Of a DNA stretch of 64,000 nucleotides, positions 46,781 through 53,950 are shown one piece after another (position 1 is the first letter of the stretch; each line of letters starts with the position of its first letter). Origin of the DNA: Eledone cirrhosa (lineage: Eukaryota). The position numbers and the translations under genes are program-made. The stretch covers positions 335,420,001 through 335,484,000 of the forward strand of contig OZ024742.1 in the NCBI GenBank assembly GCA_964016885.1. The letters are read 5' to 3'. The notes under the pieces are model-generated. The model did not search any database. It was given only the letters and a program-made list of their open reading frames with translations, and had not been told where the DNA came from.

Positions 46781-46784
<4 letters not shown>

Positions 46785-48860
46785 GAATAATCGAGTATCG
46801 AAAAATCGGCGCACGAGTTCACGATAAACAAAATTCGAAATGAGCGGAAGAGGGCTCAATAATTCAGATAAATCAGAGCTATAACTATCGTTAAAATACC
46901 GACACACATAGAACATGTCTAAAATCAACCATACGACCGAAAAATCACGATCTGGTAGATTCGGGTCACTCAGATAAAATATCAATAAATCAATAAATCA
47001 AATGAATGTAAAAAGCTTACCCGGACCCGCTAGAAAGATGGTAAATCTAGCTTCTTGGGTTTCTGTAAATCCTTAAATCGCCCTCTATCAGCCCACATAA
47101 AAATATATAAGACTTCTAGAAAGCAGCGGACAGGAATTACTTTCTCAACGAGCTTTTGTCCGAACGAATAAAAAGGCACAATCCAAGTTGAAAAAACGCA
47201 CATGGAATTTAGCAAGGGAGATAACCTCTATATCCGCAAAAAATATTCGGGAAAATGTGGAAATTCACATATCGAATAAGAGTGCTCAGTAGACATGTTA
47301 AAATAAACAGGAGCTATTCATCATTTAATAGAATCGACAAAAAATGAACAATAAAATTAACTGGTCAATAGCTAAGTCTAGACCTAAATATAGTAGAATA
47401 ATCGAGTATCGAAAAATCGGCGCACGAGTTCACGATAAACAAAATTCGAAATGAGCTGCAGAGGGCTCAATAATTCAGATAAATCAGAGCTATAACTATC
47501 GTTAAAATACCGACACACATAGAACATGTCTAAAATCAACCATACGACCGAAAAATCACGATCTGGAAGATTCGGGTCACTCAGATAAAATATCAATAAA
47601 TCAATAAATCATGTGAATGTAAAAAGCTTACTCGGACCCACTAGAAAGATGGTAAATCTAGCTTCTTGGGTTTCTGTAAATCCTTAAACCGCCCACTATC
47701 AGCCCACATAAAAATATATAAGACTTCTAGAAAGCAGCGGACAGGAATTACTTTCTCAACGAGCTTTTGTCCGAACGAATAAAAAGGCACAATCCAAGTT
47801 GAAAAAACGCACATGGAATTCAGCAAGGGAGATAACCTCTATATCCGCAAAAAATATTCGGGAAAATGTGGAAATTCACATATCGAATAAGAGTGCTCAG
47901 TAGACATGTTAAAATAAACAGGAGCTATTCATCATTTAATAGAATCGACAAAAAATGAACAATAAAATTAACTGGTCAATAGCTAAGTCTAGAGCTAAAT
48001 ATAGTAGAATAATCGAGTATCGAAAAATCGGCGCACGAGTTCACGATAAACAAAATTCGAAATGAGCGGCAGAGGGCTCAATAATTCAGATAAATCAGAG
48101 CTATAACTATCGTTAAAATACCGACACACATAGAACATGTCTAAAATCAACCATACGACCGAAAAATCACGATCTGGTAGATTCGGGTCACTCAGATAAA
48201 ATATCAATAAATCAATAAATCAAATGAATGTAAAAAGCTTACCCGGACCCGCTAGAAAGATGGTAAATCTAGCTTCTTGGGTTTCTGTAAATCCTTAAAT
48301 CGCCCTCGATCAGCCCACATAAAAATATATAAGACTTCTAGAAAGCAGCGGACAGGAATTACTTTCTCAACGAGCTTTTGTCCGAACGAATAAAAAGGCA
48401 CAATCCAAGTTGAAAAAACGCACATGGAATTTAGCAAGGGAGATAACCTCTATATCCGCAAAAAATATTCGGGAAAATGTGGAAATTCACATATCGAATA
48501 AGAGTGCTCAGTAGACATGTTAAAATAAACAGGAGCTATTCATCATTTAATAGAATCGACAAAAAATGAACAATAAAATTAACTGGTCAATAGCTAAGTC
48601 TAGAGCTAAATATAGTAGAATAATCGAGTATCGAAAAATCGGCGCACGAGTTCACGATAAACAAAATTCGAAATGAGCGGCAGAGGGCTCAATAATTCAG
48701 ATAAATCAGAGCTATAACTATCGTTAAAATACCGACACACATAGAACATGTCTAAAATCAACCATACGACCGAAAAATCACGATCTGGAAGATTCGGGTC
48801 ACTCAGATAAAATATCAATAAATCAATAAATCAAATGAATGTAAAAAGCTTACCCGGACC
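46781..48860 (-). repeat. 3.4 tandem copies of a 611-bp unit, each full unit with an HHR (47019-47153, 47630-47764, 48241-48375)
   Basis: GCUCG-UUGAGAA-aGUAAUUCCU..AGGAUUUACa-GAAA-CCC..GCUAGA/UCUAGC-GGG-UC-CGGGU. Confidence 0.8.
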
Positions 48861-51800
48861 AAAATACTAGAGTGTGTTGGAGTTAAACACCCTCTTCGTA
48901 ATATAGAAATGACAGTAAAGGTATAGCTCAATGTAATTAAACAGAGCCGAAGAATTATGAAAATAAACCAAAGAAGCCTTCAATACATCAAAAGTCTTTA
49001 TTAGCCAACAATGTTTCGTCCTATTAAGGACTCATCAGGGCAATTAAAGCTATAAGAAGCACTATCGGCCAATACAAGCCAAAAACTCAGAAGAATATGG
49101 AGTGTACATACATTAAAGCATAGGAAAATTATCGGGTAAAAATTATCAAGTAAAATTGCTAAGGAAGTGAATAACATTTTGAACCATATTACAAATATAG
49201 TCCAATGCAAAAACTAAAGCTAAACAAAGGTGGTGATATAGAGCGGGAATTATTGTACTATATATAATATAATATAATATAATATAATTGATAATGATAA
49301 TAATAATAATATTAAAAGGCCCAATATACGTATATATATATACATATGTACACATATATACATATATATCAATACACATTTCCATCAATACAAGCACAAA
49401 CTAACACTTATTAAGAGTTTAAATATAAATAAAAATAATAAGAATAAAAATAAAAATAAAAATTAAAAATAAAAATATATTACATATATTATTTACAGTA
49501 TAAAATGAAGAAGAAATGTTTAAAAGTAAACATATAATATATAATAAACTATATAATTATATAATAGATAGATAATCTCCGGTTAATTTGCACAAACAAT
49601 ATAAATGTTACAATAACACTATAATAACAATATTATAATATATTGGCATATAACTTAACAAATCATATAGAGTTACAGACCGGGTGAGAAAAAATATTGT
49701 ACAGAACTAAATTAAGTTGGAAAAATTGTGTTGGAAAAATATCAAAACCATTGCAAGAAAACAGATGGAGGTCAAGTTTCTATACAATTGGTGTAAATAA
49801 ATATTATCCAAACATTACAAAAATTATAAAAATATAAACATATTACAGAATTTACAAAATTTAACATAACATAATGGTACATTTAATAATCGGTAAATAA
49901 TAAAGATCAATAGTACGTTTACAAAGAGTGGAATGATATAACAACTTCAATATAAAATATTGAACATAGTATAATATACATAATTACGTGGTTGGTGGAC
50001 AGACATTTGTGAATAAGTGAATAAGAACCAGACAGAAAACTACGCATGGTAGTATAAATATATAAATAAAATCAACCGGAAATCGAAAAACAAAAACAAA
50101 AGTATTTACTTAGGTGTCACATGCAGTTAAGTAAAAAATTTTGGGAAACAAACCCGGATAAATGACTAGAAAACCCTATTAAATTAATTAATATTGAAAG
50201 TATTTAAAATACATAATAAGTCAATAGAAAATTAGCTATGGTTTAAGTAATCAGAATCTCCAAAGTTTAAGATATCACTATAAAAATATCTAGAAAAGAA
50301 TGAAATATTCTACTATCAGTTGAATAACGTTATCTAATAAACGGACTTTAAATAGAATTATGGTAGGCCAATGGGGACAGAAAAAAGAAATGTATGGAGG
50401 ATACGAAGGAGCATAAAATCATAATCAATATACTGTATTATACAATAGAAAGGAGCATAAAAGGGAATTGAATATAATTATAGTATATTTGAAGGGGCGA
50501 ATGACAAGTGTGTGGGGGGAGGTTAATTATCAAAAGAAGAATCCAAATAAAATAAAATAAAATATATAATCTATATAATCAGATATAAACTCATAAAGTG
50601 TTAATAGTGAAAATATAATATTTAAGAAGCCAAAAGACTATGAAAGCTAGAATGAAAAGCTGTTAAAAACCAATAATAATAATGATGATAATGATGGTGG
50701 TAAACCAAATTAACCTAAACTAAAAAGATAAGGGAATATAGCAGCTAATGGATACAATTTACACTACTAGAACCTTTAGGTTTATAATAAAAGTAAGAAT
50801 TTGAAATGGCGTGGGGGCAAGAAGAGAATATCTCAGACTTTCTATTAAGTAAGGTTTCCCTAGAGAAAATTATAGAGTGGGTCTCAAGGATACAGAGATT
50901 ACAAAATTTAGTATGTGTTGAAAGGATATTAGAGCGTGCTACTATTCGCCAATTAAGGCTATATGGTATATTAGCCCCCTTAAGATCCCAGATATGGTGT
51001 GCTAAAGAAGTAGAATTCTTAAACTTAACATGTTTAAAATTAGAGATATGAGAATTAAACCTAGTCTTAAAAGTGTTAGATGTAGAGGCTATATATGTGC
51101 TATTAGAGGAATTAGTGTTAACTACACAAGCATAAACGATGTTCTTAGAGAGGCAGTTACCGTTTGAAGGGCAGTTAGCACTCACTCTACAGTTACACTT
51201 CCGGGTGCTATTGATCGGCTGAAGTAGTGATGCATCACACGTAGGGTTACTATGAGATAAGGTCTGCTCAGGTGGTAAGGCATTTATGGATCTATTCAGA
51301 CTAGTAGTACGTAGAGAGGAGTATCCATCCCTAATTTTCCCATTGTTAGTGCTAGCTAAATGAGAACTAATATTAGGGGTGGTAGAGAATGAAAGTTTAA
51401 TTACATTTTTATTAAAAATACTATGGTATTTATTAGTAGGAGGGAAATTTTTCTCTAAGATAGAAAAGAAAGGCCTAGGGATGTTAGTTAATACTTCCTG
51501 ATTATATGGCGGGTTAAAATAGGTATTTAGTCTCCTTCTATTTTATCCTTACCAACTCTACCGTTATCTAATATCCCATTATTAAGATTTGGGTTACTAC
51601 AAGGACTAGTTAAAACCACATTATTAGAATCAGCCGAAACTCCATTAAGTCTCTTTCTGTTTCTACCTTTAGTATATCTGCTGCTATCTGGAATCATATC
51701 AAAAGGATTAGGGCTAATAATAGGATCAGTAGAAACAACACTATTAGAATTAGATTTACAAAAGCATTACCACTGAGTGAGCGCTCAGAGGGCTCGACTT

Positions 51801-53236: not shown

Positions 53237-53268
<32 letters not shown>

Positions 53269-53950
53269 TCTTATTTTACGTCTTTTATATTATTGTTCTG
53301 CATCCTCCTGCATTGAACCACCTAGGTGCTATGACATAACCTGTGTATTTGCTGGAATTGGCGTGCATCTGTGCGCTTATGTTAGTAGATATATTAAATT
53401 ATCTATATTTATCTCCAAATCACTGATTTGTCGCGCAAACCTGCCAAAACCACTTCTAAATTTTTGGGGGCTGTTAGTAGGCGTCTGTCATCTTACCATC
53501 CCATTCCTACTGACTAGCCTCTGTGTCACGTGATTGATTCTTTAGAATCGGCCATATGATCAGTGGCAGTGTGAATTTTCAGTACCTGGAATCCAGTCCT
53601 CGATAGCTGTTCCATTTACCGAATTATTATTATTTTTATATGAGTCCCCAGTGTCCGCGCATTGCCTGAAGACTTGGCTGAGAATGATCTCCCTGATGAC
53701 GCAATGAAATTCTCAACAGTTCATTACGTAACTGTCTTTATCCCATTGCAGAAACTAATTAGTTGGAGTGAAAATTTAAGTAAGTTAATTTTTTTTTTTT
53801 TTTTTTAATTTTCTTATTTTACGTCTTTTATATTATTGTTCTGCATCCTCCTGCATTGAACCACCTAGGTGCTATGACATAACCTGTGTATTTGCTGGCA
53901 TTGGCGTGCATCTGTGCGCTTATGTTAGTAGATATATTAAATTATCTATA
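52416..53950 (+). repeat. 2.8 tandem copies of a 543-549 bp unit, each with an HHR (52597-52676, 53140-53220, 53689-53768)
   Basis: CUCC-CUGAUGA-cGCAAUG..CAUUGCa-GAAA-CUAAUUAG-UU-GGAG; a 50-bp inverted unit fragment lies at 52366-52415. Confidence 0.85.

Follow-up and report, generated by a model that had tools for sequence, protein, structure and literature searches.

A head-to-head composite of two retrozyme-type arrays and a Hydra-clade Penelope-like element in Eledone cirrhosa: possible origin in a single insertion

Introduction

The composite described here occupies positions 46781–53950 of a 64,000-nt stretch of the Eledone cirrhosa genome (assembly GCA_964016885.1, contig OZ024742.1, 335,420,001 to 335,484,000, forward strand), hereafter the window, in whose own coordinates all features are given. 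It consists of two tandem arrays, with units of 611 bp and about 546 bp, arranged head to head on either side of the body of a Penelope-like element that encodes part of a reverse transcriptase (RT) and a GIY-YIG endonuclease (EN), and both of its outer ends lie on (TA)n. By its motifs the body belongs to the Hydra clade, and an inverted repeat found near the 3' ends of autonomous Hydra-clade relatives recurs in the arrays. We tentatively read the locus as the product of one insertion, in which a Hydra-clade RT would have primed on both target strands and switched templates.

On which enzyme spreads animal retrozymes, published work offers co-occurrence with Penelope-like elements and similarity to their terminal repeats. 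A preliminary description of the locus, made from the sequence alone, had proposed a single integration in which the Penelope RT jumped between RNAs with ribozyme-made 5' ends. The evidence considered here comprises the 64-kb window, 78 related loci from metagenome contigs, and published work.

Results

Layout of the composite and its joins

A tandem-repeat scan and a self-comparison of the window agreed with the preliminary description on both order and coordinates: (TA)n, 611-bp array (minus strand), Penelope body (minus), a 50-nt inverted piece, 546-bp array (plus) and (TA)n. The left (TA)n target tract (46430–46781) lies between the composite and an unrelated palindromic hammerhead element at 45963–46429. 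The 611-bp array (46781–48860, minus) comprises 3.4 units that are 98–99% alike, its 3' end overlapping the left tract by the 5 nt TATAT. Between this array and the inverted piece extends a unique Penelope body of 3.5 kb (48861–52365, minus). The inverted piece (52366–52415, minus) is a copy, in opposite orientation, of 52677–52724 and 53769–53816 in the neighbouring array, which spans 52416–53950 (plus) with 2.8 units of 546–549 bp, 97–98% alike, and whose 3' end likewise overlaps by TATAT the (TA)n-rich right tract (53932–56032). An overlap of 3–6 alternating A/T bases with the tract was shared by all five array 3' ends of the window and by a relic of the 546 unit.

The three inner joins carry no microsatellite, as had been described, the longest alternating A/T run across each being 2 nt; the Penelope body is thus joined directly to the 611 array, with no (TA)n between them. 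Elsewhere in the window, 66 and 56 nt of perfect repeat are left between neighbouring insertions, and intact tracts set off from their neighbours the palindromic element that precedes the composite and, beyond it to the right, the 591 and 485 arrays. The 611 join falls 3 nt inside a helix with a predicted pairing probability of about 0.9, a plausible pause site. At the second join, between the RT and the inverted piece, the residue three positions before GG-YRDD is L in the two closest homologues and also in the window, where it is read across the join, so that a few shared bases are plausible at this point. BLAST among the parts of the composite revealed no similarity beyond short AT-rich matches; an origin of the 611 array by local amplification of the Penelope 3' region was rejected on the same absence of similarity, a 350-nt part of that region lying outside the comparison.

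The Penelope body

Three minus-strand open reading frames (ORFs) of the body correspond to the second half of an RT from GGLYRDD onwards, an N/S-rich linker and a GIY-YIG domain. The C-terminal half of the RT with its thumb (51973–52365, minus) is 5'-truncated just before the YRDD motif, and is 45% identical to an Argonauta hians protein (P0005). This match and the listing of an octopus Hydra element in the supplement of PMC8557442 make it likely that the host is an octopod. It is followed by the linker (51527–51972, minus), which at about 159 codons is long compared with the 22–34 residues of 40 of the 48 relatives measured, and which contains two frame breaks, both placeable at short homopolymer runs. 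The EN region (50745–51542, minus) precedes a 3' region of about 1.9 kb (48861–50744, minus). Relative to homologues of 700 amino acids, the RT piece aligns to residues ~340–475 and the EN piece to the C-terminus, placing EN C-terminal to RT. A full HMMER search yielded 6,582 relatives at E 0.001, while for the three ORF pieces Pfam contained no relevant family and word-index protein searches gave no matches.

The Hydra clade is defined by a CxCX5C linker motif, the absence of CCHH, and a CxxC and a CxH associated with the conserved E and N, respectively; Neptune requires CCHH with two cysteines inside GIY-YIG and a CX2-5CxxC linker (PMC8557442). In the window, the linker motif is CNCRVSANC, which fits CxCX5C, a motif present in its exact form in 97 of the best 150 HMMER matches. 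The EN region lacks CCHH, has a single C between IVY and YIA, and contains CNLCILE and CPH, with CxxC before the conserved E and CxH after the conserved N. The RWK and DKT motifs sit in the N-terminal half, which is missing from the window; among 17 matches of at least 600 amino acids, eight carry RW[KR] and 15 carry DK[TS]. On these motifs the body is a Hydra-clade element, and its earlier label of 'Neptune-like' is not upheld, as neither CCHH nor the Neptune linker motif is found. An assignment to Naiad, which needs an N-terminal EN, was also rejected, since here EN follows RT. The canonical hammerhead and the (TA)n target expected of the clade are both found at the locus, although the 3' end of the element itself lies off (TA)n.

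The hammerhead of the element's terminal repeat, which was absent from the preliminary description, is of type I (49000–49044, minus), with a predicted cut after 49007. It matches Rfam RF00163 with 29.1 bits (E 0.00057), without reaching the gathering score of 34; at gathering level Rfam returned no match in the window, and among the 25 rows returned at E up to 10 the Penelope hammerhead alone was meaningful. Related loci reach (TA)n 34–113 nt after the hammerhead site (seven loci), and published Hydra consensuses end about 35–150 nt after it (computed from Files S1 and S2 of PMC8557442). As the body ends 146 nt past its site, within the range of the consensuses, the element is 3'-complete apart from (TA)n. 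Candidate natural priming sites lie about 106, 115 and 142 nt past the hammerhead site. The distance from stop codon to hammerhead is 1.7 kb, against ~0.1–0.5 kb in most related loci and 1.1 kb in L044.

The 546 and 611 units

Each 546 unit carries a credible type I hammerhead (52597–52676, 53140–53219 and 53689–53768, plus). It combines a CUGAUGA core and GUU with three stems: a stem II of 6 bp, flanked on either side by an extra base, a palindromic stem III and a stem I of 4–5 bp. The first copy has one mismatch in stem I, while units 2 and 3 pass the full hammerhead rule, and the motif was equalled in none of 1,000 dinucleotide shuffles. It has no match in Rfam. With the core stems only, the monomer folds at −5.9 kcal/mol, compared with −14.7 kcal/mol for the best fold, and the palindromic stem III suggests that the ribozyme would act as a dimer (PMC4209133). 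Non-coding units in tandem, all with a type I hammerhead, would class the 546 unit among retrozymes that lack long terminal repeats (non-LTR retrozymes). Its units are mosaics of variants. The array begins 257 nt ahead of its first cut site and ends at the same unit position as the single 78%-identical relic of the unit in the window (12991–13134). The inverted piece is mostly a T run whose source is about 260 bp away; at the end of this run it agrees with the variant of the third unit and not of the nearest one, which is weak evidence at a homopolymer edge. A 27-nt pattern derived from the 546 hammerhead had no matches in metagenome contigs, and 68 pattern matches in viral contigs included none that could be confirmed.

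The 611 unit presents a different picture. Its hammerhead-like motif (47635–47702, also 47024–47091 and 48246–48313, minus) is partial and not significant: stem III is good, stem I is limited to 1 bp and stem II to 2 bp at best, and the motif fails the full hammerhead rule; the core, CUGAU(A/C)G(A/U), varies among the three full copies, an equally good motif arose in 185 of 1,000 dinucleotide shuffles, and another, equally poor candidate is present at 48806–48782. With stems I and II missing, the unit was rejected as a retrozyme with an intact hammerhead, and it appears to work like a non-autonomous Hydra-type element whose ribozyme has been lost or has decayed. A loose home-made descriptor of ribozymes of the hepatitis delta virus type found nothing in four units, a weak negative given that it had no positive control.

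The 611 units differ from one another at 3, 10 and 11 of 611 sites. Private differences are distributed unevenly among the three full units (2, 9 and 1; p 0.009), and one variant is common to units 2 and 4. Uneven private differences together with variants shared within arrays point to linear, uncut and already heterogeneous multimers as templates, rather than to a single circle.

A terminal inverted repeat shared with Hydra-clade relatives

An inverted repeat of the form GCTC-(8–26 nt)-GAGC, usually followed by ACT, recurs in the tails of the related loci, and was absent from the preliminary description. Of 42 loci, 36 have it at most 170 nt past the hammerhead, where shuffles would give 2.6; the 42 are those left from 45 loci with a sense hammerhead after three with less than 100 nt beyond the site were dropped, and they include repeats of the same family and are not independent events. 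The motif is often double, its copies 55–70 nt apart, as in the tails of L008, L013, L015, L028, L030, L031, L034, L039, L044, L051, L068 and L071. In L020, L036 and L044, the 5' boundaries of upstream copies lie 65–92 nt past the hammerhead site, close to the second motif. In L028 (2597–2620), a single (TA)n tract separates two different Hydra elements that face each other tail to tail.

The position of the motif relative to the target was assessed on 75 tract flanks, 17 of which were dropped as microsatellite-containing; of the 58 kept, 19 had an uninterrupted homologue. In 11 of these 19 the motif starts 6–10 nt after the tract's first base; the 11 comprise every sense-strand 3' end (nine distinct families), the remaining eight being antisense flanks, 5' boundaries or internal AT runs. 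Among published consensuses, Hydra-2_Amil carries the motif and Hydra-1_Amil does not clearly do so, and the main text of PMC8557442 makes no mention of a terminal inverted repeat ('hairpin' and 'stem-loop' both have zero occurrences). No description of the motif was found in the literature searched by title and start of abstract, a coverage from which subscription papers and Repbase reports are largely absent.

A profile of the motif, trained on the related loci alone, was scored on the whole window and both strands. The two top scores, 29.2 and 26.0, both fall in the 611 unit on its minus (sense) strand, while the Penelope tail scored 21.0 and three unrelated sites 21.2–23.5. The best repeat of the window, GCTC..TGAGCACT, is found at 47281–47314, 47892–47925 and 48503–48536 (minus); the strict pattern gave just these three matches, one per 611 unit, against 0.01 expected. 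The second repeat of the 611 unit, scoring 26.0, is at 46854–46879, 47465–47490, 48076–48101 and 48687–48712 (minus). The motif of the Penelope tail, GCTC..TTGAGC (48926–48947, minus), lies 60 nt past the element's hammerhead site.

Weaker copies occur where the arrays meet their target. In the 611 unit, a repeat at 47363–47384 (minus) lies 3 nt past the position at which the array 3' end meets (TA)n, in the form GGTC..GACC, with GCTC..GACC at 47995 and 48606; in the 546 unit, a degenerate TCTC..TCGAGCA repeat (52863–52887, plus) lies 3 nt past the corresponding position. Overall, such copies start 3–5 nt past four of the five array 3' ends of the window, with fractions of positions scoring as well of 0.039 (611), 0.015 (546), 0.066 (485) and 0.014 (short 591 arm). 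The combined p is 0.0008, for a 3–5-nt rule that was framed after the data had been seen, and the second 546 unit scores lower. The window variants GTTC..GAAC, GGTC..GACC and ACTC..GAGT preserve pairing, which hints at a hairpin; the score itself rewarded pairing, and a DNA-level site remains an alternative. Taken as a whole, the shared motif would tie the arrays to Hydra-clade enzymes independently of the joins.

Position of 5' ends relative to ribozyme sites

The preliminary description had placed both the inner end of the 611 array and the start of the inverted 546 piece 4 nt from a predicted cleavage site, and had taken this as a sign of ribozyme-made 5' ends and hence of cleavage in vivo. 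For the inverted 546 piece the position is exact: the site lies after 52672, GGAG is missing, and the piece starts at the fifth base past GUU, with a chance of about 0.02 for that single end. The 611 array does begin 4 nt upstream of a GUC, but this GUC is not a credible ribozyme site, given the missing stems and the frequency of the motif in shuffles. At the join GGTC is moreover retained, four bases that would be missing from a cut RNA, unless the Penelope RNA had supplied them.

Across the credible hammerhead elements of the window, one of seven 5' ends falls within 5 nt of a cut site (chance of at least one, 0.21), the other six being offset by −257, +56, −32, −67, −64 and −121, where the offsets of palindromes were taken from alignment centres. 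Among related autonomous elements, none of the three measurable 5' boundaries is near the site (+65, +90 and +92). Furthermore, copying ran through three intact sites in each of the two arms, in the right arm through three intact 546 hammerheads. Ribozyme cutting as the source of the joins is thus weakly supported, and cleavage in vivo is not implied.

Other elements in the window

To the right of the composite, a 591-bp array (57435–59100, minus) with a 21-nt inverted arm has both ends on (TA)n and a Hydra-type motif past the end of its short arm; no hammerhead was found in it. An intact (TA)n tract separates it from a 485-bp unit present in 1.26 copies (59167–59776), which shows a loose relationship to the 546 unit, contains a type I hammerhead (59613–59683), and begins 32 nt before its cut site. 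The members of a palindromic family (36894–37474, 45963–46492 and 13347–13636) carry in each arm a minimal hammerhead with CUGAAGA, share almost the same centre, and have two 3' ends about 45 nt apart, in the manner of the 'tail' pattern of Penelope; the 217 nt past the site did not contain the end motif. The ACTC..GAGT form of that motif is present in a palindromic element at 62517–62941 (hammerhead at 62833–62887) and beside a lone hammerhead with a 10-bp stem I (14211–14173, within 14010–14211). Further palindromic inserts are located at 15100–15578 and at 38404–38684, the latter with a decayed hammerhead-like core and a palindromic stem III.

Three head-to-tail copies of a long interspersed nuclear element (LINE) with endonuclease and RT, 74–86% alike and Tx1/L1-like by eye, occupy 15574–31889, their ORF1 containing a zinc knuckle. 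A 660-bp tandem unit (41160–42373), with an inverted third copy at 56424–57135, has (ATGT)n ends and resembles a LINE 3' tail.

Discussion

A single insertion with template switches

The composite lies head to head in (TA)n, its inner joins are free of (TA)n, its body carries the Hydra-clade motifs, and a terminal motif is common to autonomous relatives and arrays. Since serially inserted neighbours retain (TA)n, the bare inner joins favour one insertion, and both-strand priming in a single event fits, and is likely from, the head-to-head arms with both 3' ends on (TA)n. Our preferred account, held tentatively, is that a Hydra-clade RT primed on both strands and switched templates, with no need for ribozyme-cut ends. 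The endonuclease would nick both (TA)n strands, and each nick would pair with a handful of A/U bases immediately 5' of the motif, through which the enzyme would be loaded. The left complementary DNA (cDNA) would copy 3.4 units of an uncut 611 multimer, halt inside the predicted stable helix, resume at or near the 3' end of a Penelope RNA, halt again at the RT motif, and gain 50 nt of 546 sequence either as RNA template or as repair filler. The right cDNA would copy 2.8 units of an uncut 546 multimer, and the two cDNA ends would be joined almost blunt, with little or no homology.

The same geometry is repeated nearby and in relatives: head-to-head arms are found in at least five palindromic elements and in the 591 element of the window, and in eight of the 78 Hydra-clade loci (five distinct joins, some at contig starts). 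Inverted 5' copies have also been described for Penelope-like elements (PMC8557442, PMC3846280), and in vitro the Poseidon enzyme cuts and extends both strands, initiates internally, and needs no ribozyme cleavage (PMC11167929).

Several observations weigh against this account. The element's natural priming site cannot be fixed, and none of the candidates has an intact second motif before the join. Its ORF contains two frame breaks, and the Penelope part may therefore be older than the arrays. The composite is known from one locus only, and no such fusion occurs among the 78 related loci, whose contigs are only 1–8 kb long; no report was found of template switching between RNAs by a Penelope enzyme. 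As regards the motif, the long 591 arm breaks the rule (fraction 0.52), and the arms of the repeat are nearly invariant in autonomous relatives, so that covariation there does not show RNA pairing.

A further step is possible, and is proposed with somewhat greater reserve: Hydra-clade enzymes would load on a GCTC..GAGCA RNA hairpin and prime 6–10 nt upstream of it, and retrozyme-type arrays would parasitise them via this hairpin and not via the ribozyme, the locus recording one reaction with three RNAs and two nicks, perhaps with run-off of a ribozyme-cut 546 RNA. If true, this would identify which enzyme mobilises these retrozymes and provide a cis signal that is both minimal and testable; the 611 unit further suggests that mobility does not require the hammerhead. 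The idea that a Penelope enzyme mobilises the arrays thus gains independent support from the shared terminal motif, with Hydra as the clade concerned, while the fusion itself does not identify that enzyme, as a chimera alone does not show that this very family supplied it. The occurrence of the motif at the priming site in both autonomous Hydra elements and arrays, along with their physical fusion, makes the proposal directly testable with one purified protein and short RNAs. The shared motif is the broader result and the one more open to testing.

Alternative explanations

The composite could instead have been built stepwise, through separate insertions into one (TA)n tract with deletion of the tract, or by copying of an older read-through chimera of 611 and Penelope sequence, with the 50-nt piece as repair filler from the adjacent array. 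This is the strongest of the alternatives, although we consider it unlikely. Serial insertion into (TA)n is seen in the window, the heterogeneous 611 units and the frame-broken ORF suit copying from an older locus, the piece is little more than a T run with a source 260 bp away, and microhomology-mediated deletions are reported in Penelope copies (PMC3846280). However, a clean loss of (TA)n would be needed at up to three joins, where two neighbouring pairs of insertions kept 56–66 nt or more, and past each candidate priming site the Penelope end continues with bases that should be missing from an integrated 3' end, barring a 'tail' or tandem copy. The agreement of the piece with the third unit speaks faintly against filler from the adjacent array, and neither proves nor excludes it.

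The version of the preliminary description, one event in which the enzyme jumped after running off 611 and 546 RNAs at 5' ends made by ribozyme cutting, appears improbable. Besides the start of the 546 piece next to a credible site, it draws on the possible Penelope origin of GGTC, in which case the proposed cut would coincide exactly with the start of the 611 part; the Penelope motif does begin G-C/G-T-C, and relatives show the same 6-nt TAT-TTT spacing as the join. Retrozyme RNAs are also known to self-cleave in other animals (PMC7229834). These points are outweighed by the insignificant and variable 611 motif with its equally poor neighbour, the single window end near a site, the three intact sites read through in each arm, and the unfavourable monomeric fold of the 546 hammerhead. 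In addition, Poseidon inserts uncut RNA in vitro, RNA-seq shows no ends at its site (PMC11167929), and one of nine Xenopus retrozyme dimers was cleaved (10.64898/2026.07.22.740005).

An assembly chimera of unrelated repeats is very improbable: the region is rich in repeats and palindromes, the joins are known from the assembly alone, and the frame breaks at short homopolymer runs recall long-read error, but no long stretch is shared across the joins, the parts are oriented and end in keeping with the family's biology, with 3' ends on (TA)n by the motif, and the tandem units are resolved with distinct variants. Of ten sequencing runs listed, seven contain part of the stretch (0.06–0.43 of its words) and none of these is of RNA, which speaks neither for nor against the joins.

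Comparison with known systems

Twin priming is known from L1, and template switching or jumping between different RNAs from R2 elements. The locus resembles both in that opposite-strand cDNAs would be joined at their ends and RNA jumps would give rise to chimeras; it differs in the class of enzyme, in the absence of poly(A), and in having arms that come from different RNAs.

Closer parallels are offered by the complex Penelope insertions of Adineta vaga (PMC3846280) and by the Poseidon element PAc in vitro (PMC11167929), which share with the locus head-to-head arms, N-rich linker insertions, a long spacer before the 3' repeat, mobilisation in trans, and internal initiation with nicks on both strands. 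Unlike these cases, the window locus joins three unrelated RNA families; its priming sites share 3–6 alternating A/T bases with the target, where PAc initiates with no homology.

Published work already covers Hydra elements, inverted arms, N-rich linkers and retrozyme arrays, as well as the proposal of Penelope-like mobilisation. The literature searched by title and start of abstract, in which subscription papers and Repbase reports are mostly absent, contained no description of a Penelope body fused to foreign retrozyme arrays. As described for the Hydra clade of C-terminal EN+ Penelope-like elements, which includes Hydra-1_Obim of Octopus bimaculoides (PMC8557442), RT is followed by GIY-YIG, with CxCX5C, no CCHH, CxxC and CxH, a canonical hammerhead near the 3' end, a (TA)n target and inverted 5' copies. 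The window element departs from that description in its missing 5' half, its ~159-codon linker with two frame breaks, its 1.7 kb from stop codon to hammerhead, and a 3' end that lies on a foreign array and not on (TA)n.

The arrays, in turn, resemble metazoan non-LTR retrozymes (PMC7229834; 10.64898/2026.07.22.740005), for which mobilisation by Penelope-like elements has been proposed, in their non-coding, AT-rich tandem units of a few hundred bp and in the type I hammerhead with palindromic stem III of each 546 unit. Their unit sizes of 546 and 611 bp compare with published ranges of 170–400 nt (PMC7229834) and 51–972 bp (10.64898/2026.07.22.740005). In contrast to the described retrozymes, the 611 unit has no intact hammerhead, the units are heterogeneous in a way that suggests linear multimers rather than single circles as templates, the arrays are fused to a body of autonomous type, and their putative link to the enzyme runs through a shared end motif and not through terminal-repeat homology.

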